A stretch of DNA of 30,278 nt from an uncultured Dehalococcoidales bacterium. GTDB taxonomy: Bacteria; Chloroflexota; Dehalococcoidia; Dehalococcoidales; W498. The DNA is taken from the NCBI GenBank assembly GCA_964566845.1, contig CAZMJZ010000001.1, positions 1 to 30,278 of the forward strand, read 5' to 3'. Shown here piece after piece: positions 402 to 17,462 of this stretch. The notes under the pieces were generated by a model, which was not told the origin of the DNA, did no database searches, and was given only the letters and a program-made list of their open reading frames with translations. A program made the position numbers and the translations under genes. Position 1 is the stretch's first letter; every line of letters starts with the position of its first letter.

Positions 402-716
402 ATGAAAGGGGTTCCGCAAGGAAGGTACACGAAGGAGTTTCGAGAGGAAGCGGTGAAACTGGTAACGGAAGAGCAGCTATCGTTACCGGAGGCAGCCCGC
501 CGGCTGTCTTTACCGCCATCGACGTTGGCGACTTGGGTGAAAGCCTGTAAGGCCGGCAGGCTTGGAGAGATAGGCAGGACGCAAAGGCCTCTGACCGAAA
601 TCGAGATGGAGTTGGCCCGAACGAAGAAGGAACTGGTGGAAGTGAAGATGGAGCGGGATATATTAAAAAAAGCAGCCGCGTACTTTGCGAAGGAGTCGCT
701 GCCCGGTACGCGATGA
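402..716 (+). CDS. IS3 transposase OrfA (HTH)
   Basis: YTKEFREEAVKLV...EAARRLSLPPSTLATWVK HTH followed by coiled coil MERDILKKAAAYF. Confidence 0.93.
   Translation: MKGVPQGRYTKEFREEAVKLVTEEQLSLPEAARRLSLPPSTLATWVKACKAGRLGEIGRTQRPLTEIEMELARTKKELVEVKMERDILKKAAAYFAKESLPGTR
665..672 (+). promoter_or_regulatory. -1 programmed frameshift site producing OrfAB
   Basis: A7G run; A-AAA-AAA in the OrfA frame; the -1 frame is open from 671 to the OrfB ATG at 713. Confidence 0.75.
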
Positions 717-1576
717 TGAAAGAACTGCGGCTTCACTACCCTTTACCGCTGGTGAGGCGAGTTTTAAGCGTGTCAGCCAGCGGGTACTATGCCTGGCTGG
801 GCCGGCCACTGTCGAGGTGGGCCCGGGAGGAAGCACGGCTGGAGATTGAGATTAAGGCGGCTCATAAACGGACAAGGCAGGTCTGCGGCGCCGAGAAGTT
901 ACAGTATGACCTAGCAGAGCATGGTATCAGGGTGGGCATTTGCCGGATCAAGCGCATCCGGAGAAAGCTCGGCATACGCTGTAAACAGAAGAGGAAATTC
1001 AAGGCCACCACCGACTCAAAGCATACCCTTCCGGTAGCCGAGAACATACTGGGTCAGCAGTTCAAGGTTGCCGCGCCGAATAAGGTGTGGGTGAGTGATA
1101 TAACATATGTGCCCACAGACGAAGGCTGGCTGTATGTTGCCGGCCATAAGGACCTTTTCACCGGTAATATCGTGGGCTACGCGATGGGAGAGCGGCTGAA
1201 AAAGAGTTTGGTTAGTCAGTCTTTGTTCCAGGCTGTGGCAGCCAAACGGCCGGCTAAGGGGCTGGTTCACCACTCTGACCGGGGCAGTCAGTATTGCTCC
1301 CATGAGTACCAGAGTATTCTTGACCGGTTCGGCCTGATCGCATCGATGAGCCGGAAAGGGAACTGTTTTGACAACGCTCCGATGGAGAGTTTCTGGGGAA
1401 CACTCAAGCAGGAACTGGTCCATAACCGCCGTTATAAAACTAGGCAGGAGGCGGTTCAGGACATCACGGAGTATATCGAGATATTCTATAACCGGCAGCG
1501 CCGACAGGCAAGACTCGGGTTCCTATCACCTGTGGCCTATGAACAAAGATTCTATGCAGGACTACTGGCAGTATGA
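713..1576 (+). CDS. IS3 transposase OrfB (rve/DDE)
   Basis: WVSDITY, HHSDRGSQY and DNAPMESFWGTLKQE motifs are intact. Confidence 0.95.
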   Translation: MMKELRLHYPLPLVRRVLSVSASGYYAWLGRPLSRWAREEARLEIEIKAAHKRTRQVCGAEKLQYDLAEHGIRVGICRIKRIRRKLGIRCKQKRKFKATTDSKHTLPVAENILGQQFKVAAPNKVWVSDITYVPTDEGWLYVAGHKDLFTGNIVGYAMGERLKKSLVSQSLFQAVAAKRPAKGLVHHSDRGSQYCSHEYQSILDRFGLIASMSRKGNCFDNAPMESFWGTLKQELVHNRRYKTRQEAVQDITEYIEIFYNRQRRQARLGFLSPVAYEQRFYAGLLAV

Positions 1577-3715: not shown

Positions 3716-4048
3716 TTATGGATAGAGGGTAAAAAGAGGGTTTGACCAAAGCTCCTCGCCGGCTGCTATCCCTTCCCTGGTGAGACGGCAGTACACCCGC
3801 TCCGGAGCCGGGGGATAGTTATCCTGTATTGCTGAAGGCTCAGTCTTCCCAGTTTCCTCAACCCATCCCAAGCGTTTCAAGTGACTAAAATACCGGGTGA
3901 AGCTGGAATATCTCATCTTTAGCAGCTCATATGGAATACGGCTGAGGTAGTATTCCAACCATGCACGATATTGCTCCTCGGTATAAGCGGGTTTGTCTTG
4001 CCTTACTCGCCTTTCCTCTTCCCGCTCTACTGCATCCCTATTTTCCAT
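3716..4048 (-). pseudogene. Probable C-terminal remnant of a winged-helix protein from a mobile element
   Basis: YSSFTRYFSHLKRLGWVEETG...RVYCRLTREG resembles a wHTH recognition helix and wing; the ATG lies inside the fdhD 3' end. Confidence 0.45.
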
Positions 4049-4835
4049 CAGTTACTACCCTCCACTCGTTGGTGTAGACATTCATCCTCTTTCCCCTAAC
4101 AAATCCTATAAGAGTTACTCCCAAATCATTGGCTAGATTCACTCCCAGGTCAGTAGGGGCAGATTTGGAAATAAGTATAGGTATACCTTTTCTAGTCACC
4201 TTCAGTAATATCTCCGACGAGATTCTCCCGCTGGTAACTATTATGCAGTCATTTGTAGGTATATCTGTCAGGATACACTCACCAAAGACTTTATCAATGG
4301 CGTTATGTCTGCCTATGTCCTCGCAGAAAACCAAGATGTCCTTCGTATCGCATAAGGCGGCGCTGTGAACACCACCGGTTGTCTGATAGTTCAGAGAGGC
4401 GTGCTGGAATTCCTTTACTAGGGCAAAGACTTCAAGGGGTGTTACCAAAGTCTGAGATTCTGTTCTTGACTGTCCCTGAACATCAGCCGCACTAATATAG
4501 GAAGCCCCTCTTCCGCACCCCGAAGTTATGAGTCGTTTGAATAAGAGTTCGCTAGCGTGCTGATTATCTTTCTCAATTTCCACGCGTACCACGCCTCTCC
4601 GGTCATCAACCACTATCTCCCTGATTTCGTCTTTACTTCTAAGTAACCCTTCGGAGGAAAGGAAACCGATAGCCAAGTAGTCCAAATTCTTTGGGGAACA
4701 AAGCAGAGTAACTAGTTCTTGGTCATTTAGGATGATGGTAAGGGGGAATTCTCTGGCAACCATATCCTCAATGTTACGTCCGCATCCCTCAGTAAGCCGC
4801 AATATAGGAATCTTCTCCACTTCATTCTTCGTCAT
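4038..4835 (-). CDS. fdhD: Formate dehydrogenase accessory sulfurtransferase FdhD
   Basis: EFPLTI...LAIGFLSSEG, TSGCG, TGGVHSAAL, EDIGRHNAIDK and TSGRISSEI motifs. Confidence 0.93.
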   Translation of the reverse strand: MTKNEVEKIPILRLTEGCGRNIEDMVAREFPLTIILNDQELVTLLCSPKNLDYLAIGFLSSEGLLRSKDEIREIVVDDRRGVVRVEIEKDNQHASELLFKRLITSGCGRGASYISAADVQGQSRTESQTLVTPLEVFALVKEFQHASLNYQTTGGVHSAALCDTKDILVFCEDIGRHNAIDKVFGECILTDIPTNDCIIVTSGRISSEILLKVTRKGIPILISKSAPTDLGVNLANDLGVTLIGFVRGKRMNVYTNEWRVVTDGK

Positions 4836-5209: not shown

Positions 5210-6253
5210 TTACTCTACAGTAACCACTCCTTTCGGTTCATTGATAGCCTCTCCAATGATAGTTGCATCCTCCACACCCACTTGTCGCAGATTATTGAGT
5301 AGCAGTTCAGCTTTCCCAGGACTTAAACAGATTAGCAAACCGCCAGAGGTTTGAGGGTCAAAGAGGATATCTTGCATATAAATAGGCAATTCCTCATCGA
5401 TTTTCACCGCACCGGAGTAAAATTCCCGGTTCCGGTGTAAACCAGCCGGACATAGTCCCTGCTTAGCGAACTCGATTGCTTCTGGTAAGAACGGGATAGA
5501 AGTGAGTTGGATGATAATGCTTACATGACTGTTTTGAGCTAGCTGGACAGTGTGACCAAGGAGTCCGAATCCAGTGATATCAGTACAAGCATGGACGCCT
5601 ACCTTCTGCATGAGCTCCGACGCTTTGTCGTTTAAAGTTACCATACACTTCGTAAGCTTCGTTATCGTCTCTTCGTCAACCATTCCAGCTTTCAAAGCAG
5701 TGCTTATGATTCCAGTTCCCAGTGGTTTAGTAAATATGAGCTTGTCTCCTGCCTTAGCCCCCGCATTGGTCACCAGCCGTTTAGGGGACACAACACCTGT
5801 AACAGAAAGACCATACTTTAATTCGGTATCCTCTACACTATGTCCCCCAACCAGAGCCACTCCTGCCTCACCCATCTTATCCACCCCACCCCTGAGGATA
5901 TCCTTCAATACTGAGATATCCAGGGACTTCGTGGGAAAGCAGACCACATTCATTGCTGTCAGCGGCTTGCCACCCATAGCATAGACATCGCTCAATGCGT
6001 TGGCAGCGGCAATCTGACCAAACATGTACGGGTCATCAACTATGGGCGTGATGAAATCGATGGTCTGAATAATAGCCAACTCATCAGTTAGCTTATAGAC
6101 GCCGGCATTATCTAGGCTCTTCACGCCTCGAATCACCTTTGGGTTAGATATTAGCGGTAAACCGCATAAAGCCTCATTTAGGTCTCCCGGACCTAACTTT
6201 GAAGCTCAACCGGACCCACGAACACTTTCGGTTAGGCGAGGGTCTTTCCTCAT
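5210..6253 (-). CDS. selD: Selenide, water dikinase SelD, Sec-containing (347 aa, Sec16)
   Basis: Extending the tracked ORF upstream gives MRKDPRLTESVRGSG-U-ASKLGPGDL with TGA at 6206-6208; GGAGG RBS at 6266-6270; TIDF, AANALSDVYAMGG, TDITGFGLLGH and DPQTSGGLL motifs. Confidence 0.95.
6171..6205 (-). promoter_or_regulatory. Bacterial SECIS element of selD
   Basis: Directly after UGA: GCUUCA-AAG-UUAGGUC-CGGGA-GACCUAA-A-UGAGGC, i.e. a 7-bp upper stem, G-containing 5-nt loop and 6-bp lower stem. Confidence 0.88.
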
Positions 6254-6355
6254 ATCCGTTTAGTTCCTCCGTTACTGAAGTCAGAGATTAGCACCTGCTT
6301 CACCTGGCATTGTAGCATTCTCAGCATATGTAGTAAAATGTTTGGGGGTATAATT

Positions 6356-7747
6356 ATGGAAAGGATGTTCCGCCATCTTCCCAGTGTCGACCGGGTACTT
6401 TCTGACGAACGGGTCAGGCGACTTGAGCCAACCTATCCCCGCAGCTTGCTTCTAAACTTAATTCGGCAGCACCTGGAACACAACCGCCTATACATTACGG
6501 CGAGTAATCCATGCTCCACCTTTGATGAAATAGTGGATGCCGTTTGTGCTCAAGTTCGTGCCTTAGGAAACCCGAGCTTGCGCCCTGTAATAAATGCCAC
6601 TGGCGTTATCATCCATACTAATCTCGGTCGTGCCCCGCTTAGTAAAGAGGCAATAGCAGCTATAGATGCAACGGCCAACAGTTACTGCAATCTGGAGTTC
6701 GACCTTGACAGTGGCACGCGGGGCTCTCGTAGCACTCATATTGAGCCGTTGCTGTGCCAACTAACTGGAGCGGAGGCGGCACTCGTAGTTAACAATAATG
6801 CTTCAGCGGTGCTGCTAGCCCTGACTACATTAACTAAGAAGAAGGAGGTAATCATTTCCCGAGGTCAAGCGGTAGAGATTGGCGGTGGCTTCCGAATCCC
6901 TGATGTAATGCGCCAGAGCGGGGCGAAGTTAGTTGAAGTGGGAACTACCAACTGTACCTATATTGCTGATTATGAACTGGCGATTAACCCACGGACAGCA
7001 GTGTTAATGCGGGTTCATTCCAGCAACTTCAGGCTAATGGGCTTTACTCACTTTGTTACCCTCGATAAGTTGGTAGCGCTAGGTAACCGCTATGACCTCC
7101 CAGTATTTGATGACCTGGGTAGTGGCTGTTTCTTGGACACAACCAAGTTCGGACTTGACCCGGAGCCAATGGTGCAACAAAGCGTTGCCATTGGTGCCGG
7201 GCTGGTCTTCTTTTCTGGAGATAAGCTTATGGGTGGTCCTCAAGCCGGGATTATCGTCGGTAAGAAGCAGTTTATTGATAAGTTGAAGAAACACCCGCTG
7301 ACTCGGGCGGTGCGAATTGACAAGATAAGACTAGCTGGTCTGGTAGCTACATTAATTCACTACCTCAAGGGTGAAGCAATAGAGAAGCTACCGGTATGGC
7401 GTATGATTTCGGCACCACTGGAGGAGATCCACCAGCGCGCTAGAACTTGGTCTCAAGGCCTTGATGACCTGGCTCAGGTGGTAGATGGGGAGACTATGGT
7501 TGGGGGCGGCAGCCTACCTGAGGGCACCCTACCGACGAAACTCGTCGCCATTGGCAGAGAGGGTAACAGAAAAGACAAAAAAACGGCTCAGGCCTTAAGC
7601 CAAAGGCTGCAGAATCAGGAAATGCCCATCGTTGGGCGGATTAGTGGCAGTGTACTACTCCTTGACCCGCGCTCTGTCCTTCCTGAAGAGGACCAAATTG
7701 TGCTTCAAGCGCTCCGCAAGTTAGCTGTCATCTGCAGGCACACCTGA
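6356..7747 (+). CDS. selA: L-seryl-tRNA(Sec) selenium transferase
   Basis: [22 protein letters not shown]-like [18 protein letters not shown], and PLP-Lys motif [13 protein letters not shown]; GGGGG RBS favours start 6356 over 6338. Confidence 0.96.
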
Positions 7748-7773
7748 TGGTAGTAAAAGCGGCAAAAGGGTGT

Positions 7774-9627
7774 ATGATGTTTGTACTGGGCACTGCTGGG
7801 CATATAGACCATGGCAAATCAGTGTTAGTGTATGCCTTAACTGGGATAGACCCTGACCGGTTGCGTGAAGAAAAGGAGCGGGGCATGACTATAGACCTTG
7901 GCTTCGCGTGGCTAAAGCTGCCCAGTGGACGAGACGTAGGAATTGTTGATGTTCCCGGACATGAGCGGTTCGTTAAGAACATGCTGGCGGGAGTAGGTGG
8001 CATTGACCTTACCTTACTTGTTGTCGCTGCCAATGAAGGGGTGATGCCCCAAACCAGAGAGCACCTAGCCATTATAGACTTGCTTAGCATAAAAAGAGGA
8101 ATCGTGGTTATTGCCAAAAAGGATTTAGTGGATGATGAGTGGCTGAGCTTGGTCAAGATGGAGATAGAGGAGCTAATTGCTCCAACTAACTTATCCCAAG
8201 CCCCGATTATTGCCGTCTCGGCAGTAACTGGTGAGGGCTTATCCGAGTTGGTTTCGGCTATCGATTCTCTCATAAGCTCTATTGAACCGAGAAAGGATTT
8301 GGGGCGACCAAGGCTTATCATAGACCGAGTTTTCACCATCGCCGGTGCTGGCACAATAGTCACTGGAACATTAATTGACGGTTTGCTCACTGTGGGACAG
8401 GAAGTAGAGATTGTTCCCGCCGGTTTGAGGTCACGCCTACGAGGATTGCAGACGCACAAAGCCCCTATCGATGTTGCTATTCCCGGGAGTAGGGTTGCCG
8501 CCAATTTGGTTGGTGTTGCCACTTCACAACTACAACGTGGCGATGTGCTTACCCAGCCCGGCTGGTTAGTACCTACCACGATGCTCAGTGCCAAGCTCCG
8601 TCTACTTCCATATCTTCGTCGTCCCCTACGACATAATGCTACCGTGAGTCTTCACACCGGAGCCACCGAGGCAATGGCTAAAGTCCGTCTGTTAGAGAAG
8701 GAGGAGCTTCAACCGGGAGAGGTCACTTGGGCTCAGCTGTCACTGAATAAGCCCATCGCCGTAATCAACGGCGACTGCTTCATCATCCGTTCTCCTATGG
8801 AGACTCTCGGTGGTGGTGATATTGTTGATTCTCATGCTAAGCGGCTTCGCCGCTTTCGCCCGGCAATTATCCAAAGCCTGAGAGTGAGAGAGGAGGGCAC
8901 TACTGAGGAGATTATCACTGCGTTATTAGAGATAAAGCAACCTATGGAGCTACCCAACCTCCTCGCTCAATGCAATTTCCCCACCAGTGATTTTCGCTCA
9001 GCCCTACAAACCCTTATCCAGCAAGGGAAAATATTGGGAATAGGTCAGGAAGAACGCAGCCTTCTTTGGACTAGATTGGGATGGAAGCGGCTGACTAAGA
9101 ACGCTGCCACCATAGTCCAAGACTATCACCGAAGATTCCCGGCTCGCCCCGGCATGCCCAAAGTGGAACTAACTAGCCGTCTAAAGCTGGGAGTATACTC
9201 TGCGGTAGCTCTGCAAAGGCTTTCTGGAGAAGGTGCCTTAATTGAAAACAGCACAAGCGTTCGCCTTCCTGCATACCAGATAAAGCTAACTCCGGCTCAA
9301 CAGGCAAAGATAGATGGCTTCCTGCGCGCCCTGGCTCAAAACCCTTATTCTCCACCTGGGAGCCTTATCCCTGAAACCGATTTGCTAAATCTGCTCGTTG
9401 AGCAGCATAAGGTGGTTAAGGTGAGTAGCAGCGTGGTCTTTTCTACCTCAACCTATGATGAGATGGTAGAAAAAGTGATTAATCACATTAAGGAGCGGGG
9501 TAAGGTGACCCTTGCTGAAGTCCGGGATTTGTTTGATACCAGCCGAAAGTATGCCCAGGCTTTCTTGGAACATCTTGACGAAAGAAAGATAACCCGCCGT
9601 ATTGGTGATGAGCGAGTTCTTTGGTAA
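7774..9627 (+). CDS. selB: Selenocysteine-specific elongation factor SelB
   Basis: [27 protein letters not shown] and C-terminal winged helix [14 protein letters not shown]; start could be 7747, 7774 or 7777. Confidence 0.96.
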
Positions 9628-9643
9628 GAGACTTAATTATCGG

Positions 9644-9737
9644 CGGGAGCGCATGGGAGTCGAACCCACCGAAGACACTTCTGATGCCCCCCAACGGATT
9701 TGAAGTCCGCGAAGCTCACCGGGGCTTACCCGCTCCC
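9644..9737 (-). tRNA. selC: tRNA-Sec (UCA), CCA not encoded
   Basis: Anticodon loop CTTCAAA (TCA = 9701-9703), 6-bp D stem with CGGT loop, long variable arm, GGTTCGACTCC T-arm, discriminator G followed by CCG. Confidence 0.95.
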
Positions 9738-9827: not shown

Positions 9828-10046
9828 TTATTTCCGAGGTGGGGTGAGCACAAGGCGATACCCGTCTGATGCCACTTCTACCTTAATGTGATACCCCTTG
9901 CTCTGAGCCAGCCGGGACACGTTCTCCTTTGAGACCATGCTCTCAACAAGTACAGTGACTGGTTCATTTGGATTTTCCTCAATAGCCTTCTTAGTTCTTA
10001 CTACCGGTATGGGGCAGGAAAACCCCTGGACATCGACCTCAACCAT
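9828..10046 (-). CDS. TusA/SirA/YedF-family sulfur/selenium carrier (72 aa)
   Basis: VDVQGFSCPIPVVRTKKAI (CPxP); RBS GAAGGAGAGG; ATG overlaps the upstream stop codon. Confidence 0.9.
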   Translation of the reverse strand: MVEVDVQGFSCPIPVVRTKKAIEENPNEPVTVLVESMVSKENVSRLAQSKGYHIKVEVASDGYRLVLTPPRK

Positions 10047-10938
10047 TGTAGTCCTCTCCTTCTCCATAGCAGACTCCGCTCCATTGACAAAGGTGCTCCT
10101 TGAACACAGCCCGAAATTGATTAATGATTTGACTGACTCTAGTAGCCGGGGTAGCTTGGGCAAACTTTCCTGCCGTGCGGTTGGCTCGGGCAGCAATTAT
10201 TGCCGCTTCGTGCAGTTCAAGACCAGCATAGGCAAAGGCAGAAATCAGGCCGGTAATAGTATCACCTGTCCCGCCGATAGCTTCCAGCTCGGGCACATCA
10301 GGTTGTGTGATGGTAGCCAGAATATTCCCGTCGCGTACAACGTAGTCAACTGCACCCTTGACCAGTAACAGCCTGGCTGTGTTTCGCTGCTGGCAAGCAG
10401 TTGTTACCAGCCTTGGCGTCTGGGTAATATCGGTATCAAAGAGGTGTTGGTTGATATAAGCAGGGTGGGTGGCATCCGGGTCAGCGAGGAAGGCCATCTC
10501 AGTAGCATCCGGCGTGAAGATGTCAAATTGTGCCGCTAATCCGGCTGCCTTGGCGACATACATTGAGGCAGCATCGGCAATCATGATTGGCTTTCTGGGA
10601 CACCTATTAACGGATTGGCAGACCTTTCTCATTAGAGTTATATCAGGAAGGATATAGTGTAGTGCCAGTACTTCCGGAGAAAGCTCGGGCAAGTGGCGGG
10701 CAAGATAATCGTAGATTAATCGGCTCCCCTCACCCCTCCCCAAGTCCCCAGCAACTACTGTCTGGGGTGGTTCAAGGTTCAGATAACTGGTAGTTGCCAG
10801 TGCTGCACCAATCATGGCTCCAGTGCCCTGAGCACAGGGCAAATGGTATCCGTCAACGACTAGCAATCCATCCTCGCCTCTAGTCTCCCCTGTGATCAGG
10901 GGCAACCCTTTGATCGGAACCGTTCCCGCAATGAGCAT
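10039..10938 (-). CDS. Ribokinase-fold (YjeF-C/ThiM-like) protein of unknown function
   Basis: IADA, FTPDATE, LLVKGAVDYV and anion-hole IGGTGDTITG motifs; GGAGG RBS supports a start at 10938/10941. Confidence 0.75.
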   Translation of the reverse strand: MLIAGTVPIKGLPLITGETRGEDGLLVVDGYHLPCAQGTGAMIGAALATTSYLNLEPPQTVVAGDLGRGEGSRLIYDYLARHLPELSPEVLALHYILPDITLMRKVCQSVNRCPRKPIMIADAASMYVAKAAGLAAQFDIFTPDATEMAFLADPDATHPAYINQHLFDTDITQTPRLVTTACQQRNTARLLLVKGAVDYVVRDGNILATITQPDVPELEAIGGTGDTITGLISAFAYAGLELHEAAIIAARANRTAGKFAQATPATRVSQIINQFRAVFKEHLCQWSGVCYGEGEDYNG

Positions 10939-10940
10939 CA

Positions 10941-11474
10941 CTATTGATTTCCTCCATTCCAGAGGATAAGACACTCCTCTAGAGCCCGGTCCAGCATCAG
11001 AGCGCACAGAGTAAAGCCGATATCCCTTGGTCGCGGCGCTTGGGCGAGCGGTTTACCGATTAGCTCAGCGTGAAGGCGGGGAATATCAGGGCAGCCGCCG
11101 CCGGAGGTATTCACAATGATGCCGCTCTCCCTGTCAAACGTGAGTTTCATATTGCCTGCCCTGACCATCATCCAATCACCGAAATCAGTTACCTTGACAA
11201 TTTGTAGAAGTTCCGAGGTACCTATCTTGAGTGGGGCAATACCGACATAGGTGGCATCCCTCTCGTTAAGTAGCCGCTCGATGCCTAGCTTCTCTACCAG
11301 GTTTATCTCCACCGCCAAATCACAGCCCTTTCGTAATTCTGGTGGTGGTGCAACCAGCCTTACAGCATACCCACCACCCTTGAGTACCAACTCCGCCTTC
11401 ATAGCGTCTGGCACTTCCACAAACAGTATCAGCCCCCCACTGGCAAAGGATTGTTCTTTCTTGAATATTGGCAT
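10941..11474 (-). CDS. DUF3343-like protein with an additional Cys-containing C-terminal domain
   Basis: AELVLK...VAPPPELRKGCDLAV, then SGGGCPDIP...GKPLAQA...CALMLDRALEEC; GAGAGG RBS before ATG 11474. Confidence 0.75.
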   Translation of the reverse strand: MPIFKKEQSFASGGLILFVEVPDAMKAELVLKGGGYAVRLVAPPPELRKGCDLAVEINLVEKLGIERLLNERDATYVGIAPLKIGTSELLQIVKVTDFGDWMMVRAGNMKLTFDRESGIIVNTSGGGCPDIPRLHAELIGKPLAQAPRPRDIGFTLCALMLDRALEECLILWNGGNQ

Positions 11475-11484
11475 AAATAACCTC

Positions 11485-12561
11485 TCACGCTTTTTCTCTA
11501 CTGAATAGAAATCCAATCGCCAGACAAAAAGCCAGGCCTACGATTACCCCCCAAATGGTATAGTCACCAATGCCCTTCGGGCTTGAGGCAAGCCCGAAGT
11601 TGTGCGCAATGGCAGCCCCAACGATAAAGCCAATAACAGTTATCCCGGCATCAGCATTTCCCTCCCCGGAGAGAATTGTCTGGCGCAGGGGACATCCGCC
11701 AAGCAAGGTAGCAGTGAGACCAGCCAGGAGCATACCCAGGAAGTTCCACAGAAGGTTGTCATGTGCCACTGGCTGCCCCGCGAAACCCCAATGATAGAAA
11801 CCAGAGGCAAAGTTGCCCAAGGCATAGTTACTGATTATGGCTCCAATGAAAAAGGCAGCAATGCCACTAAAGAGATAGGTATCCCTGACCAGAATGAGGT
11901 CTCGCCACCCACCAACAAAGCACATCCTGGTCCTCTGCGCCAGAAAACCGAAACAGAGACCGATGAGGAGTGAAATCCACAGGGCAGCATGCATTGAGCC
12001 TGGTCCCTTGTCGCTGAAAAAGAGAAAGCCTGGTTTGAAGATAGCCAGAAGGAGCAGTCCAAACATAATCAGCGGCACCATCCAGCCGACAGCAGTTGGT
12101 ATCTTCAGCGAAGGGCCAAGGTTGAAACCCCGTCTGAGAAAGAAGATGCCAATTTCTGCTCCAGCCACCACCCCCGCCAGAGCCGTAATACCATTAAGGT
12201 CGCCACCGGCAAGGCGAAGAACTACCCGAATCGGGCAGCCGAGAAAGACCAGCGCCCCAATCATAAAAAAGACGCTTAATATAAAGCGGATTATTGGTGA
12301 CGAACCACCTCTGGACTTAAATTCACCGAAGGAATAGGCAGAGATAAAGGCACCCAGCAAAAGCCCCATAATTTCAGGGCGCAGGTATTGCACTACCGCA
12401 GCCTGGTGCAGTCCCAGACTGCCAGCAATATCACGATAAAAACAGGCAACGCAGATGCCCATATTGGGTGGGTTGCCCCACTTGGTTGCCAGGGTAGCCA
12501 GAGCCCCAAAGACTAACCCAGCGACAATAATCCTCACTCGGGGTGCCCAGAACCGCTGCAA
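11485..12561 (-). CDS. YedE/YeeE-family putative selenium transporter
   Basis: Multi-TM; GNPPNMGICVACF, LGCP, RMCFVGG and LGGCPLRQ motifs; TTG start after GGGGAGGAG. Confidence 0.88.
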   Translation of the reverse strand: MQRFWAPRVRIIVAGLVFGALATLATKWGNPPNMGICVACFYRDIAGSLGLHQAAVVQYLRPEIMGLLLGAFISAYSFGEFKSRGGSSPIIRFILSVFFMIGALVFLGCPIRVVLRLAGGDLNGITALAGVVAGAEIGIFFLRRGFNLGPSLKIPTAVGWMVPLIMFGLLLLAIFKPGFLFFSDKGPGSMHAALWISLLIGLCFGFLAQRTRMCFVGGWRDLILVRDTYLFSGIAAFFIGAIISNYALGNFASGFYHWGFAGQPVAHDNLLWNFLGMLLAGLTATLLGGCPLRQTILSGEGNADAGITVIGFIVGAAIAHNFGLASSPKGIGDYTIWGVIVGLAFCLAIGFLFSREKA

Positions 12562-12733: not shown

Positions 12734-13624
12734 ATGAACCTGGACAATCTGAGAACCTACCTTGATGTGGTTAAGCTGGGGAGCTTCTCAGAGGTGGCTA
12801 AGAAACTGTCCATCAGCCAGCCTGCGGTTTCCTTTCAAATCCAAAAGCTGGAGCGTGACTTGGGTGTTCGCCTGCTTGACCGGAGTCAAAAGGTAATCAC
12901 CGTGACCGAGGCTGGCAAAAAGCTAGTCCGCTTCGCTGAAGTTGTAGAGAAAGAGCGAGACCGTCTCCAGTACGACCTTGACCAGTTGCGTGAAGAGGTG
13001 GCTGGAGACCTGATTGTTGCTGCCAGTACTATCCCGGGTGAGTTCCTGCTGCCAGCGATTTTAGGTGAATTCAAAGCACTACATCCTGTTGTGAGAGTCC
13101 AGATGGTGGTCTCTGATTCTCTTACTGTCATCGCAGGAGTGCGAGATGGAACCTACGATATGGGGTTCTGCGGCATCGCCCCAGAAGGTCAAGAGTTGGA
13201 GTCATTCAAGATAGCCGAAGATGAGATTGTTCTCATTGTGTTTCCGGAGCATCCCTTTGCTCGACGGGGAGAAATTTCTCTGGCGGAGCTGGACGGAGAG
13301 CCACTTCTCTTCCGTGAGGAGACTTCAGGCACACAGCAAAGCCTCCAAGCCCTCTTATCCAAAGCTGGACTTGACCTCAGCATGTGGGCACCGAATCTGG
13401 TTCTGGGCACAACCCAGGCTGTGGTCTCGGCGGTAGAGGTAGAGGCAGGGATTGCCTTTGTGTCGAATCTGGCTATTAAAAAGGGGTTAGCCCTTGGTCT
13501 GGTCAAACAAGTCACTGTTGATGGTTTAAGGTTGAATCGGGACTTCTACTGCATCTATCGGAAGGAAAGGATAGTTTCCCGACTGCTTGGTGAGTTCATC
13601 GCCTTCGTTCAGGCAAGGGCGTAA
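12734..13624 (+). CDS. LysR-family regulator (selenium-associated/CysL-like), divergent from yedE
   Basis: GSFSEVAKKLSISQPAVSFQIQKLE HTH; ASTIPGEFLLP and REETSGT substrate-domain motifs. Confidence 0.92.
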   Translation: MNLDNLRTYLDVVKLGSFSEVAKKLSISQPAVSFQIQKLERDLGVRLLDRSQKVITVTEAGKKLVRFAEVVEKERDRLQYDLDQLREEVAGDLIVAASTIPGEFLLPAILGEFKALHPVVRVQMVVSDSLTVIAGVRDGTYDMGFCGIAPEGQELESFKIAEDEIVLIVFPEHPFARRGEISLAELDGEPLLFREETSGTQQSLQALLSKAGLDLSMWAPNLVLGTTQAVVSAVEVEAGIAFVSNLAIKKGLALGLVKQVTVDGLRLNRDFYCIYRKERIVSRLLGEFIAFVQARA

Positions 13625-13788: not shown

Positions 13789-15410
13789 TCATTCCAGCCA
13801 CGCCTCCATATCCAGAATCATTGTCTTCAGCTGCTCCAATTCCTGTGGCGTAGCCTGCCATTATCCCCTGTCATGTGCCTCAAGCATCTTCTCTACCAAC
13901 TCCAGAATCGCGTACATGTTGTTTTCGGCAAGTCTACGCCACATCTCCTCATCAAACAACAGTGTCTCGGCAGCTTGGTCAAAGAGCCACTCCTTGACTT
14001 TTCCTGTCGTCACCTGTAAGCCGAGGAGGTACTCTATCCTCTGGGTGAGCTTTTGTGCCACGTGGAAATCGTGGCTCAGCATCCCGTCTATCCACTTCGG
14101 GTTAAGATCCCTGGTCCTTGTCACCCGGTCGATGACCTTTTCCACATCCTCTATCCCCAGGCTTTCTTCAGTGGTGTCAACGACCCATTGGTCAGGATAC
14201 TCGCCCCGCTTCTCCTTCACACTTCGAGCTAGGCCGCCAAAGAACTCATAATGATGGTCAAGGTTGGTAAACTCGTACTCTGTATTGCCACGCTCCTATG
14301 ATACTACATCAATTTGGCTAGTCAAGTTCTGGAATAGTTCCGGAACCCTGATGATTTGTCTACCCCAATAAGCGTGACTCATGCTGTCATCCTAGCTCGC
14401 TGCTAGTCCTTTCCCTTCTCGCTAATTGCTGCTCTACACTAAGGTCCGCATGGAGGTGGCATATTCGCTCTCCGAGAGGCCAAATATCCCAGCCTCGTCC
14501 AGTTCACCAAACTATCCTTCGCTTCCAGGTGGTTTTTACGGACGTAGTTGTGCTCGGGCGGTTCCTCGTCGCCCCAGCAGCCAGTTCGATAGCCTTGCTA
14601 AGAAGGTCAATATGAGTTCCGAAGAGGTCACGGAAGATGCCGCAAATGGTGATAACCGCATCAACCCTGGGTTTGCCCAGTTCTTCCGGGGGGATGAGTT
14701 CCAAGTCTTTGAACCAGGGGCTGGCTATGCTTACCAGCCTCACTTCCAGATAAGAGAGTATCTAGGCTATGGTATCTCCCCCTGTCTTTACCGTTTCAAA
14801 ACCCCAGAGCACCAGTCCCAGGCTTTCGGGATATCTTCTGTACTTCTCGTAAAATTTCTTGAACACCTTGGACGCAGTCTCTTCACCCACCCGCAAAGCA
14901 GTATGGGTTGGGATAAGCCTGGGGTCAAACTCATACATATTGTGGCCAACTGGGAAAATTCTAGGGGGTACTGATGGGGTCGCCATCCAGCTTCGTCAGC
15001 AGGTATTCTCCAGAGAGGTCTTTAAGCAAAGCACCAATCTCATCTGACTGGTCGATGCAGCTCTTAAGTTCGAGGATATAGAGCTTAGTCTCATTCGGGA
15101 TATCAACCTTGTTGCCCTTGAGCCATTTTGCCACCAAGTGCTGTTCTTCCTCGTCTATCTCTTGGGCAAATTTCGGGTTGTTGACAAACTCTCCTCGACT
15201 CTTTCCTCGGCGCTCGGCCAGAATCTCATGGAGGGAGGGAACCTCACGGCCAAGTCTGAGTGCCGAGGTTAGATATGATATCAAGGTCTCGTCCTCTAGT
15301 TTGTGGTCTATTACGTGCAGCCCTTTGTGTATGAGGCGCCTCTTCATACTGTAGAACAGCAATTTCAGTGCATCAACATCGCTTGCATCCAGGTTTAATT
15401 CACTGGCCTT
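13789..15410 (-). pseudogene. Degraded C-terminal half of a CobN/Mg-chelatase-H-like gene
   Basis: Fragments in several frames: KGLHVI, PTGHN-like FPVGHNMYEFDPRLIPT, VLWGFETVKTGG, LGKPRVDAVITICGIFRDLF, DHHYEFFGG, RTRDLNPKWIDGM, ENNMYA; many frameshifts and stops. Confidence 0.88.
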
Positions 15411-15548
15411 TTCATCGTGCCACAGGTTAAAGGTATCTGATTCTTCGTGCTCTATAGGCTCTTACCAGCATCTTTTTACCCCCCTTTCTTTGCCTATTTT
15501 TGGGCATATTTACCCTCTCAAACTCCGGTAGTTTTACGCTTTATAGCT

Positions 15549-15866
15549 TCACTTTACCCCTTTTATGTTGACACCGCCCCTTTTGCCTATCGCAAGCTTC
15601 CATTGGTAGCTGGGAAGCTCGCAATAGCCCAAAGCAAACGGAGCGTAGTAATCGGTGGCACTATCAGCAGTTATAGCATCTAAAAGCGCCTTTAATAAGT
15701 AGTGGGGCTTTTCGCCTAAGGCGGGCTTTACCTTACTTTTTATCCCAGCTACATATTCCCTGACGCAATCACGGATAGTCTGCTTATCCCAGCCGTCACT
15801 CCTGACACTAAATTTAAGGTGGTCCTCAATATATTTGGAGACTAATTCAAGGCTTACACATTCTCC
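15549..15866 (-). pseudogene. Startless 105-codon open frame, 3' fragment of an unknown gene
   Basis: Open from just after TAG (15867-15869) to TGA (15549-15551): GECVSLELVSKYIEDHLKF...YAPFALGYCELPSYQWKLAIGKRGG; not in the ORF track. Confidence 0.45.
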
Positions 15867-15900
15867 CTAATCCGTGGATTTTCCAAGGGAAATTTCACCT

Positions 15901-15987
15901 GTATTTGCGAGAAGCCGTAGGCGACGTGGCAATCTCTGGAATGGAAGTGAGATTGCTTCGTCCTTCTACCGAAGGACTCGCAATGAC
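15901..15987. repeat. REP-like palindromic element of the GTCATTGCGAG...GCAATCTC type
   Basis: Outer IR GTATTTGCGAG / CTCGCAATGAC; inner hairpins GCAATCTC...GAGATTGC and GTCCTTC-TACC-GAAGGAC. Confidence 0.75.
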
Positions 15988-16090
15988 ACCTACGTGATGG
16001 GCTTTTTGAATATGTACTCACGGATTAGGAATTCTTATGTCATGAAAACGCTAACATCTCAGAGCACAATACAGCACAGGAGGTGCAGCG

Positions 16091-16346
16091 ATGCTTTATA
16101 CGGGTTTTGTCTCTATATATAAGTTTTTCTTACATTACGACTATGAATGAGAGGGGAGATATTATCGGTCAGAAGAAGTTGCCGAGTAACGGTGATATAG
16201 CGGAGTTTCTAAAGGAGTTCGGAGAGGGGATGGAAGTGGCGATTGAAGCCACACCCATCTGGTACTTGCTTTGTGACAGACTGGAAGATGAGGATGAAGT
16301 CAGCGTTTTAAGTGATGACGATATGTTTAATCATCCCCGTGGCTAA
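16091..16346 (+). pseudogene. IS110-family transposase N-terminal remnant
   Basis: AGGAGG RBS, frameshifted start, then FSYITTMNERGDIIGQKKL...MEVAIEATPIWY (DEDD RuvC-like N-terminus); truncated. Confidence 0.75.
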
Positions 16347-16397
16347 TCATACTACCGTCAACGTAAAGCGGTCCCCGCAGAGGAAAGGGAAAGCCCC

Positions 16398-16427
16398 TTG
16401 ACATATCACCTTTATGCTAGCTATAAT
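16398..16427 (+). promoter_or_regulatory. Consensus sigma70 promoter
   Basis: TTGACA-N18-TATAAT. Confidence 0.75.
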
Positions 16428-16457
16428 GTACTCAATCTAAAATTTAAGGAGGTTGTT

Positions 16458-16616
16458 ATGGGACTTCTGCAAGTTAGCGGTATCATCGGCGGTGTTCTTG
16501 CTATTATAGCAGGAATCATTGTAATAATTTGGCCTCGGATAATAGCTTGGGTACTTGGTATATACTTAATCATAATGGGGATTTTTGCCATTTTAGCAGC
16601 TATTGGGCTTACCTAA
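16458..16616 (+). CDS. Small 2-TM protein, DUF3096-like (52 aa)
   Basis: AAGGAGG RBS; LAIIAGIIVIIWPRIIAWVLGIYLII pattern. Confidence 0.75.
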   Translation: MGLLQVSGIIGGVLAIIAGIIVIIWPRIIAWVLGIYLIIMGIFAILAAIGLT

Positions 16617-16814
16617 CTTTTACTCAGTCAAGAGCAGGTATGCGTTGGTGCTATATCGACTTTAAATAAGCTAGGTTCTAACTGGAATCTAGTCCAATAT
16701 TGGCTGCTCTTTACCCAAGTACCACATAAATATGGCAGGGAGTGCCTCTTGTCTGCTATTATCAGGAAATTATGGCAGGAATAATATATCTACGGGAAAT
16801 GGCAAACATAGGCA

Positions 16815-16990
16815 ATAAAAACAAAGGATTTATTTATATCTGTGCTATTTGTAATATCGGGCGGGGTAGGATGTGCCCAATCGGTATCTGGCAAGGTAAT
16901 AAAACCTAGAAGCCTTGGGTGACTTCAGCCAATTTCAACGAAGCTTATTTGACAACTCTGCTCACTGGAAACAGCATTTTCGCTTTTGTA
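16815..16990 (+). pseudogene. N-terminal remnant of a lipoprotein, probably a serpin
   Basis: Signal/lipobox-like (I)KTKDLFISVLFVISGGVGC-AQSVSGKV, then after a frameshift VTSANFNEAYLTTLLTGNSIFAF, resembling serpin helix A (N..FAF). Confidence 0.45.
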
Positions 16991-17109
16991 GACAACATAC
17001 AGCGAGGGTATTCATGCCCCCTCGAGATGATTGGATCCGAGGAAATACCTGCCCGGATAAACCAGCAAAGCGTTGGAATATCCCCAGGAGGTTCCAGCCC
17101 GTGGATAAC

Positions 17110-17224
17110 CAGTCTTTTCTAACCCGAAAATGAGCCTGAATAGATAATAACGGCTTTCTTTCTATCTCGCTACTTTTTTCACAGCAAATCATTTAACAAA
17201 CCTCGTGAATTTTGGAAGAGACTG
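17110..17224. mobile_element. Possible MITE/IS scar (about 115 bp)
   Basis: Ends CAGTCTTTTCTAA and (reverse complement) CAGTCTCTTCCAA match 11/13; the left half is repeated at 1-56; no TSD found. Confidence 0.45.
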
Positions 17225-17228
17225 AAGA

Positions 17229-17257
17229 TTGACAGTCGGTTGACAAGATGATACGAT
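17229..17257 (+). promoter_or_regulatory. Sigma70 promoter with extended -10
   Basis: TTGACA-N17-TACGAT with TG at 17249-17250. Confidence 0.65.
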
Positions 17258-17297
17258 TTGGCTCAGGGAGATAAGGACTAATAAGATTGGAGTGGGG

Positions 17298-17462
17298 ATG
17301 ATGAATGAGGAAGAAAAGGCAAAGCTAAAGAAAGAGCTGGAAAAGACCAAGGTCGAACCCGAAGAACTTCGTAAGCTTTCGTCAATTACAGTTTATAAGC
17401 TGGTGAAACGAAAGCAAGAAATCCAAGAAATACTTGCCGAAGTTGAAAAGGATTTAACGTAG
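17298..17462 (+). CDS. Small charged helical protein, 54 aa (below track cutoff)
   Basis: MMNEEEKAKLKKELEK...QEILAEVEKDLT; GGAG/GGGG RBS; lies between a promoter and the next ORF. Confidence 0.65.
   Translation: MMNEEEKAKLKKELEKTKVEPEELRKLSSITVYKLVKRKQEIQEILAEVEKDLT

Follow-up and report, generated by a model that had tools for sequence, protein, structure and literature searches.

A putative NnrD-derived enzyme paired with a three-cysteine carrier in selenium-linked YedE/TusA loci

Here, we describe KIN, a kinase-fold protein encoded in a 30,278-nucleotide stretch of DNA (hereafter, the window) from an uncultured Dehalococcoidales bacterium (assembly GCA_964566845.1, contig CAZMJZ010000001.1). 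The KIN gene (10039..10941, minus strand) specifies a 299- or 300-residue NnrD-like protein of the ribokinase fold. Judged by its gene neighborhoods, KIN and a carrier protein harboring three cysteines form an obligate genetic unit that resides in loci encoding YedE and TusA, and in some cases the two are one polypeptide. On the sequence evidence presented below, we consider it likely that KIN is a dedicated, catalytically active partner of selenium carriers. Our overall hypothesis, which we regard as plausible but short of probable, is that KIN serves as the catalytic, nucleotide-dependent subunit within a YedE/TusA/carrier/KIN selenium-acquisition module that operates upstream of the selenophosphate synthetase SelD.

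The carrier–KIN pair

A scan of one genome per species uncovered KIN relatives in 445 genomes. Thus, the term "orphan," applied to KIN in an earlier reading of this DNA (hereafter, the original prediction), is apt in the sense of uncharacterized but not in the sense of rare. We examined gene context in the best 80 of the 445 genomes; most of these 80 are Dehalococcoidia, and the others include Syntrophales, Thermodesulfobacteriota, Calditrichales, and Thermoanaerobacterales. A further 80 loci came from scanning metagenome contigs with divergent KIN members (35–47% identity) as seeds. Gene content was assigned by searching six-frame open reading frames (ORFs) with the window proteins and their Desulfovibrio piger homologs.

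In every locus that possesses upstream sequence, the gene just before KIN, in the same orientation, encodes a carrier composed of DUF3343 and DUF8182. This arrangement holds for 79 of 79 genome loci and 68 of 68 metagenome loci, that is, 147 of 147; three flagged exceptions proved to be artifacts of stop-to-stop ORF boundaries. The two proteins can also be joined. Specifically, five representative carrier–KIN fusions, 514–588 residues long, consist of a Se_S_carrier domain, a second domain, a long low-complexity linker, and KIN, and a dedicated search returned approximately 45 clusters with the architecture Se_S_carrier–DUF8182–linker–KIN. One fusion cluster is represented by 69 sequences from 37 contigs, the longest of 438 kb, and is always preceded by YedE and TusA. 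KIN–TusA fusions exist as well (P0042, with 29 member sequences, and, independently, locus L055 from a metagenome-assembled genome). These latter fusions carry less weight because the genes overlap out of frame, and a single-base error could mimic a fusion.

The remainder of the locus is likewise maintained. For 69 loci, both flanks extend to 3 kb or more; of these, 65 encode YedE, 67 a TusA-domain protein, 35 a LysR regulator, and 25 SelD. Of 60 related loci scanned for the tRNA for selenocysteine (tRNA-Sec), at least 8 have it after tusA. Gene order differs by lineage: YedE–carrier–KIN–TusA, YedE–TusA–carrier–KIN, or carrier–KIN–YedE–TusA, the last with YedE present as two half-genes. Given that the gene set is retained despite these changes in order between lineages, the arrangement is a signature of selection on function, not of inherited synteny. 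The module occurs in Dehalococcoidia, Syntrophales, Desulfovibrionaceae, including the cultured Desulfovibrio piger, and other anaerobes. In the complete D. piger genome, the order is YedE–TusA–carrier–KIN.

KIN and the NnrD branch

Pfam assigns KIN residues 115–266 to Carb_kinase (PF01256, the YjeF_C/NnrD family) with 44.6 bits versus a gathering cutoff of 27. The match spans only model positions 92–229 of 242, and residues 1–114 have no Pfam match. The AlphaFold2 (AF2) model of KIN has a predicted local distance difference test (pLDDT) score of 91.2 and a predicted template modeling (pTM) score of 0.91. A Foldseek search of the PDB with this model gave 54 matches at E <= 1e-3, and the 50 of these that are listed are all ribokinase-like proteins (NnrD, PfkB, PdxK, ThiD, ThiM, and ribokinase; template modeling [TM] scores 0.38–0.58). 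The best match is the NnrD protein TM0922 (E 6e-7, TM 0.58, 13% identity), followed by PfkB, PdxK, ThiD, and ThiM. The model also displays an extra three-strand beta insertion between beta1 and alpha1 (residues 15–34).

Profile comparisons place the resemblance in the C-terminal part of the protein. We used a profile of close KIN homologs, called A1 (33 sequences aligned), and a whole-family alignment, called A3 (41 sequences, 30% mean identity). When the PDB is searched with A1 and A3, solved structures are reached only via the C-terminal ATP-site region (residues ~163–282); the best match is ThiM 3dzv (E 5e-8, residues 163–265), and TM0922 and the NnrD protein YxkO come next. KIN was compared with NnrD and ThiM using the cutoffs of curated hidden Markov models (HMMs) and using hhalign against Escherichia coli Nnr, ThiM, and ThiD; PMC4231035 provides no list of NnrD active-site residues for a residue-level comparison. 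KIN falls below the cutoffs of yjeF_cterm TIGR00196 (32.1 bits versus 129.85), bifunctional Nnr NF007856 (13.7 versus 703), ThiM NF006830 (27.2 versus 180), and ThiM TIGR00694 (16.9 versus 256.4), and it scores lower still, again below cutoff, with the NCBIfam models for pyridoxal and pyridoxamine kinases. With hhalign, the KIN family profile ranks Nnr first (probability 80%, KIN 99–256 aligned to Nnr 332–472) and ThiM second (probability 43%, 74 columns), and ThiD is unranked. The alignment to Nnr pairs the KIN motifs IADA, FTPDxxE, VKG, and GGTGD with DADA, TPHxGE, LKG, and GGMGD, respectively. E. coli ThiM has a cysteine (GTGC) at the position of KIN Asp226 (GTGD). The N-terminal ~100 residues of KIN align with NnrD, ThiM, or ThiD neither in the PDB profile searches nor by hhalign.

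These comparisons identify KIN as a divergent offshoot of the NnrD branch in which the N-terminal third has been rebuilt and the Mg/nucleotide and phosphoryl-transfer motifs retained. By the same comparisons, the rebuilt ~100 residues hold the family-specific motifs [QR]GT, GDxGxGxGS, and HYxxP. The original prediction had argued from motifs that KIN keeps the ATP-site elements of the fold, that its N-terminal half is unlike NnrD or ThiM, and that it is neither a sugar kinase nor an NAD(P)HX dehydratase, and had proposed HMM searches, Foldseek, and structure prediction as checks. Applied to KIN alone, those checks returned a ribokinase-like fold and failed equivalog cutoffs, and all three arguments survive, the last in the form that KIN is no standard NnrD, ThiM, or sugar kinase: only residues ~99–282 align, the VKG (193–195) and GGTGD (222–226) elements have their counterparts in Nnr, and the family stands apart.

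How far apart is evident from database searches. Approximately 3,000 clusters at 90% identity are homologous to KIN. An exhaustive phmmer search with KIN of 1.84 billion representatives (50% identity clusters) recovered 253 at E <= 1e-3 and 58 at E <= 1e-30. Because only 253 matches emerge from a collection of that size, the KIN family, as delimited by this search, is small and discrete, with no gradual transition to the NnrD and ThiM families, which are very large.

Could KIN nonetheless be a true NAD(P)HX dehydratase or thiazole kinase whose placement in a selenium operon is incidental? The Pfam score exceeds the gathering threshold, NnrD provides the best hhalign profile and structure matches, and homologs carry the database names "NAD(P)H-hydrate dehydratase" or "sugar kinase." However, the equivalog cutoffs are far off, the N-terminal ~100 residues align to nothing, TPD stands in place of TPH with family-specific motifs added, and the family is discrete. 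In addition, a housekeeping repair enzyme is not expected to track a selenium module across phyla, as KIN does in its obligate association, fusions included, with the carrier. We therefore consider this alternative highly improbable.

The named NnrD members with which KIN was compared are TM0922, Bacillus subtilis YxkO, and the C-terminal domain of E. coli Nnr, representing the ADP/ATP-dependent NAD(P)HX dehydratases. KIN resembles them in motif order (DADA/ADA, TP[HD]xxE, [LV]KG, GG[TM]GD) and in having an aspartate as the likely catalytic residue, and the shared logic is probably phosphoryl transfer to a hydroxyl. KIN differs in lacking a YjeF_N partner and in being paired with, or fused to, the DUF3343–DUF8182 protein instead. 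With ThiM, KIN has in common the fold and the absence of a large lid domain, and it differs in having no thiamine-gene context.

Conserved residues

Across A3, G38, H94, Y95, D122, A123, G195, D198, E219, and G222–D226 are invariant. Conserved in at least 90% of members are G64, D65, G67, G71, P98, M126, Y127, K130, T142–D144, E147, D153, H158, P159, K194, N253, and R254. The signature motifs, all on the minus strand, are distributed as follows. The GGTGD motif (10261..10275), presumed to supply the anion hole and the catalytic aspartate, is wholly invariant. VKG (10354..10362) comprises the invariant G195 and K194. FTPDATE (residues 141–147; 10498..10518) is the counterpart of NnrD TPHxGE and is succeeded by the family-specific FLADxxAxHPxY. 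IADAAS (residues 120–125; 10564..10581) contains D122 and A123 and is the counterpart of NnrD DADA(L). A C-terminal LCQWSGVC tail (C284, W286, and C290; 10069..10092) is restricted to the Dehalococcoidia-type subfamily: it is invariant or nearly so in A1 and is missing from Desulfovibrio-type and fused members.

Because the full catalytic set is conserved at 30% mean identity, the sequences argue that KIN is an active enzyme rather than a pseudoenzyme. This point bears on the idea that KIN is a nucleotide-sensing or scaffolding subunit, which would bind ATP or ADP and, in response to energy state, gate or organize the transfer among YedE/TusA, the carrier, and SelD, with no modification of selenium. 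A structural partner would account equally well for the tight linkage and the fusions, and no cysteine in KIN is conserved family-wide among the 41 sequences of A3. Nonetheless, maintenance of D122, E147, K194, D198, E219, and GGTGD across so divergent a set speaks against a purely structural role, to which we assign little likelihood.

If KIN is catalytic, its substrate need not be protein bound. KIN could be a trapping kinase that phosphorylates a small organic hydroxyl compound, admitted by YedE or used within the module, such as an organoselenium species or a low-molecular-weight carrier or cofactor, with the carrier protein being only a pathway neighbor. All characterized relatives (NnrD, ThiM, ThiD, PdxK, and sugar kinases) act on small-molecule hydroxyls, the conserved GGTGD aspartate is what would be expected for alcohol deprotonation, and Pnu-type facilitators pair with trapping kinases. 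Against this notion, the recurrent fusions and the unbroken adjacency argue for the carrier as the direct partner of KIN, and the known substrates of YedE-family channels are small inorganic anions (thiosulfate). We judge a small-molecule substrate unlikely, if somewhat less so than a scaffold.

The KIN gene

KIN is not a chance ORF, because it has ~3,000 homologous clusters and its 33 closest sequences exhibit 78% mean column identity. Every motif quoted in the original prediction is present: CAQGTGAM (35–42), AGDLGRGEG (63–71), LHYILPD (93–99), ADPDATHP (152–159), VKG, and GGTGD. Read from the ATG, the ORF occupies 10039..10938 on the minus strand and contains 299 codons. The true start is probably the GTG at 10941 rather than the ATG at 10938, because an identical database protein (P0001) and the closest homologs are 300 residues long and begin MMLIAG or MLLIAG. 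That GTG shares one base with the TAG stop of the upstream carrier gene (TAGTG; TAGTGATG) and has a GGAGG 12 nt upstream. At its other end, KIN overlaps the downstream tusA-like gene by 8 nt, from the ATG of that gene to the end of the KIN stop codon (ATGGTTGA), which supports the predicted translational coupling of KIN to tusA.

The carrier protein

The carrier gene (10941..11474, minus strand) lies directly upstream of KIN and encodes a two-domain protein of 177 residues. The N-terminal domain is DUF3343/Se_S_carrier (Pfam PF11823, 51.6 bits), and the C-terminal domain is DUF8182 (Pfam PF26554, from precomputed annotations). In an alignment of unfused and fused carriers, Cys51 (in the GCD of DUF3343) and Cys128 (in the NxSGGGCPD of DUF8182) are invariant, and Cys157 is nearly so. 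The AF2 model of the carrier (pLDDT 85) positions the SGGGCPD segment between a beta-strand and the N-terminus of a helix, a predicted location that would be typical of anion binding. Foldseek found no solved structural relative of the carrier model in the PDB (best E 0.03), and the DUF8182 fold is thus uninformative.

The selenium island

In the window, the minus-strand gene order is yedE, carrier, KIN, tusA-like, selC. The first operon gene, yedE (11485..12561), encodes a putative selenium transporter that scores 476 bits with TIGR04112 (cutoff 200). The tusA-like gene (9828..10046) encodes a short, 72-residue TusA/YedF-type sulfurtransferase-like protein with a CPxP cysteine (Pfam TusA, 58.6 bits); it matches the N-terminal region of TIGR03527 YedF with 58 bits, below the cutoff of 110. 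Directly downstream of tusA on the same strand is selC (9642..9737), the tRNA-Sec gene with anticodon UCA, identified with ARAGORN. Divergent from yedE, a gene at 12734..13624 (plus strand) encodes a selenium-metabolism-associated LysR regulator (LysR_Sec_metab, NF040786, 255.6 bits versus cutoff 250). The island further contains selD (5210..6253, minus strand; TIGR00476, 358 bits), selA (6338–7747, plus strand; TIGR00474, 565 bits), and selB (7747–9627, plus strand; TIGR00475, 339 bits). Because the TIGR04112 YedE, the LysR_Sec_metab regulator, SelD, SelA, SelB, and tRNA-Sec are all present in the window, we read the context as one of selenium in particular rather than a general one.

A rival reading is a sulfur function, in which the module would handle, for example, thiosulfate or persulfide, and the connection to selenium genes would be secondary. 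The YeeE/YedE, TusA, and DUF3343 families all include sulfur-handling members, the D. piger and fused-type loci have no adjacent sel genes, and a second carrier–KIN pair in locus L078 resides beside lipoate and GcvH genes. However, the window YedE belongs to the selenium-specific equivalog and scores far below cutoff with thiosulfate-transporter models (54 versus 400 and 20 versus 645), and the LysR_Sec_metab regulator, SelD, and tRNA-Sec recur beside the module. A sulfur-specific role is possible for some paralogs, such as the L078 pair; it does not fit loci like that in the window, and as a general explanation we find it improbable.

The window SelD is itself a selenoprotein: an in-frame TGA (6206–6208) separates GSG from ASK in the translation, which reads VRGSG-U-ASKLGPG. 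Thus, synthesis of SelD in this organism requires the product of SelD. In related loci, the SelD stop-to-stop ORFs are uniformly 993 nt, suggesting that SelD contains selenocysteine there too.

The original prediction had raised the possibility that KIN provides an alternative route to activated selenium. In such a SelD-independent scheme, KIN would use ATP to phosphorylate a carrier perselenide (Cys-S-Se-), and a second carrier cysteine would resolve the adduct and release selenophosphate. The product, equally conjectural, would be selenophosphate or a Cys-S-Se-PO3 intermediate, and the route would expend one ATP. The phosphotransfer machinery of KIN is intact, the carrier SGGGC loop recalls the GSG-U/C loop of SelD, and two further conserved cysteines are available as possible resolving thiols. 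The scheme would also solve the bootstrap problem posed by a selenocysteine-containing SelD, in the window and, as the 993-nt ORFs suggest, elsewhere: if true, it could restart selenoprotein synthesis where SelD itself needs selenocysteine. Three points count against it. First, 25 of 69 loci have SelD beside the module, and the window encodes it too; such co-conservation fits sequential steps better than redundant ones and disfavors the alternative route. Second, no KIN-positive genome without SelD came to light among the loci covered, whole genomes not having been scanned. Third, the conserved catalytic aspartate would be superfluous if a perselenide were the nucleophile. We thus give the bypass, and either of its products, scant credence.

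A proposed role for KIN

The hypothesis is that the YedE channel, the TusA-like protein, the DUF3343–DUF8182 carrier, and KIN form a four-part selenium-acquisition module that acts upstream of SelD. A selenium species admitted by YedE would be captured on the TusA cysteine and would then pass to the carrier cysteines: to Cys51 in DUF3343, then to Cys128 in the glycine-rich SGGGCPD loop, and to Cys157. KIN, via a putative docking interaction with the carrier, would act on the carrier-bound selenium species. Given the descent of KIN from NnrD, the simplest proposal is that it uses NnrD-type chemistry, in which a hydroxyl is phosphorylated and the phosphate is subsequently expelled as a leaving group. 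In KIN, the group phosphorylated would be a selenium-bound oxygen, either on an oxyanion (selenite) or on a Cys-S-Se(O)OH adduct. The consequence would be that condensation or hand-over onto cysteine becomes irreversible, trace selenium is trapped in the cell, and protein-bound selenium is delivered to SelD. We regard the specific chemistry, phosphorylation of Se-OH followed by displacement, as doubtful; it is drawn by analogy to NnrD and is less secure than the proposed role as a whole.

Several observations weigh against this hypothesis. Selenite reacts with thiols of its own accord, which leaves no obvious need for ATP. The acidic residues conserved in KIN are not clearly suited to an anionic substrate, and KIN has no cysteine conserved across the family. 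SelD is not adjacent to the module at the D. piger locus or at a related fused-type locus, and at the former (L084, CP189842) no sel genes occur within the 8 kb of flank retrieved on each side. Finally, deletion of yedE in Methanococcus gave no clear phenotype for any selenium species tested (PMC11097638).

The original prediction had cast KIN as an ATP-dependent enzyme acting on a selenium or sulfur species or on the carrier protein. A tie to selenium or sulfur carriers is upheld by the 147 adjacent pairs, the fusions, and the recurrence of YedE, LysR_Sec_metab, SelD, and tRNA-Sec; the ATP-dependent activity is a prediction.

Relation to known systems

The module has parallels in sulfur metabolism. 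In the YeeE/YeeD (TsuA/TsuB) thiosulfate uptake system, according to PMC13047784, the anion that is imported becomes bound to a cysteine of the TusA-like partner. In sulfur YTD clusters, which combine YedE-like, TusA, and DsrEFH-like proteins, channel/TusA pairs recruit lineage-specific downstream acceptors (PMC13047784, PMC12998232). Analogous to both, the module discussed here has a YeeE/YedE-family channel, cysteine capture by a TusA-like protein, and a lineage-specific acceptor in the same locus. The acceptor in YTD clusters is DsrEFH-like, whereas here it is the DUF3343–DUF8182 carrier together with a kinase-fold enzyme. YeeE/YeeD and YTD have a sulfur context, whereas the present context is selenium (TIGR04112 YedE, SelD, selC, LysR_Sec_metab). 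The accounts of these systems in PMC13047784 and PMC12998232 describe no nucleotide-dependent component. We considered the "conserved hypothetical proteins" of YTD clusters as possible counterparts of KIN or the carrier and rejected them, as they are DsrF/H-like.

On the selenium side, Lin et al. (2015; PMC5322559) proposed YedE, YedF, DUF3343, and LysR_Se as candidate selenium genes. All four candidate components are present in the window island together with selD, selA, selB, and selC. That study mentions no kinase-fold or YjeF-like partner, and its DUF3343 is a small protein of 80–100 residues, whereas here DUF3343 has an added DUF8182 and is tied to KIN. SelD, encoded in the same island as KIN, is an ATP-dependent selenium-activation enzyme, and its glycine-rich Cys/Sec loop (GSG-U in the window) resembles the SGGGC loop of the carrier. 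However, SelD has a PurM-like fold, and both its fold and its reaction are unrelated to those of KIN; KIN co-occurs with SelD and does not replace it. We found no paper on the KIN family or on DUF8182 in the full-text literature, the coverage of which is incomplete, so this absence is not proof.

Variant loci and neighboring genes

Some loci depart from the common arrangement. L008 and L044 have no YedE within 6 kb on each side and do have the carrier, KIN, and a long YedF. In L044 (6888–9569), the genes after KIN encode an HgdD-like protein, an activase ATPase of the BcrAD/BadFG type, and the long YedF (TusA plus DsrE-like); HgdD is the D-component of 2-hydroxyglutaryl-CoA dehydratase. The HgdD-like and BcrAD/BadFG families also appear in Lin et al. 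(2015; PMC5322559), where both are given as STRING partners for YedF and DUF3343, and the pair in L044 may constitute an ATP-driven low-potential reductase for selenium. In one divergent clade (L085–L088, L090, L098, L122, L124, L130, and L142), YedE is encoded by two half-size genes of ~180 residues each, located after KIN, versus one 10-transmembrane protein elsewhere. YedE is not a near neighbor of the second carrier–KIN pair in L078 (10136–11555), which is instead flanked by GcvH-like, dihydrolipoamide dehydrogenase-like, LplA/B, and radical-SAM genes. In this pair the carrier ORF is split, and the match of KIN to the window protein reaches an E value of only 2e-69. This pair may be a sulfur- or lipoate-linked paralog or a decaying copy.

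In L002 (7129–7223), L007 (7131–7225), L029 (5605–5699), and L054 (6944–7042), a 95–99-nt tRNA occupies the slot held by selC elsewhere. This tRNA has a Sec-like long arm, a conserved T-arm, and the anticodon GCA (Cys), and its loop reads CTGCAAA versus CTTCAAA in selC. In D. piger (L084, 4230–5054), two genes of the HesB/Fe-S_biosyn family lie just upstream of YedE–TusA–carrier–KIN.

Three further features of the window border the island. The gene fdhD (4038–4835, minus strand), encoding the formate dehydrogenase accessory sulfurtransferase, is directly beside selD, a location that fits formate dehydrogenase as a main selenoprotein client. An IS3-family transposase gene (713–1576, plus strand; NF033516, 326 bits) lies ~2.5 kb from fdhD and the selenium island. 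On the other side, a CobN/Mg-chelatase homolog (~13800–17400, minus strand) is broken into many short ORFs (for example, 13861–14220, 14504–14743, 14762–14986, and 14961–15362). Two of the pieces, when scanned, match different parts of the Pfam CobN-Mg_chel model, and the gene is probably a pseudogene.

Perspective

A long-standing gap concerns how cells take up trace selenium, separate it from the far more abundant sulfur, and supply selenophosphate synthetase with it. YedE, YedF, and DUF3343 are still only "candidate" genes, and neither a transporter nor a delivery chain specific to selenium has yet been established (PMC5322559; PMC11097638). The fold of KIN and the channel/TusA logic were known already; the NnrD-derived KIN, a carrier with a DUF8182 domain, and the obligate pairing of the two in selenium loci appear to be undescribed in the literature that was searched. 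The four parts make up one conserved unit, and KIN relatives occur in at least 445 species genomes. Our analysis corrects the widespread database names "NAD(P)H-hydrate dehydratase" and "sugar kinase" that KIN homologs bear. The candidate selenium pathway gains a second carrier domain, DUF8182, and, in KIN, a component that looks catalytically competent and nucleotide dependent. Given that the module is present in the cultivable D. piger, relatives of which are genetically tractable, delivery of selenium to SelD becomes directly testable. KIN is a good candidate for a previously undescribed ATP-dependent step in the delivery of selenium to selenophosphate synthetase.

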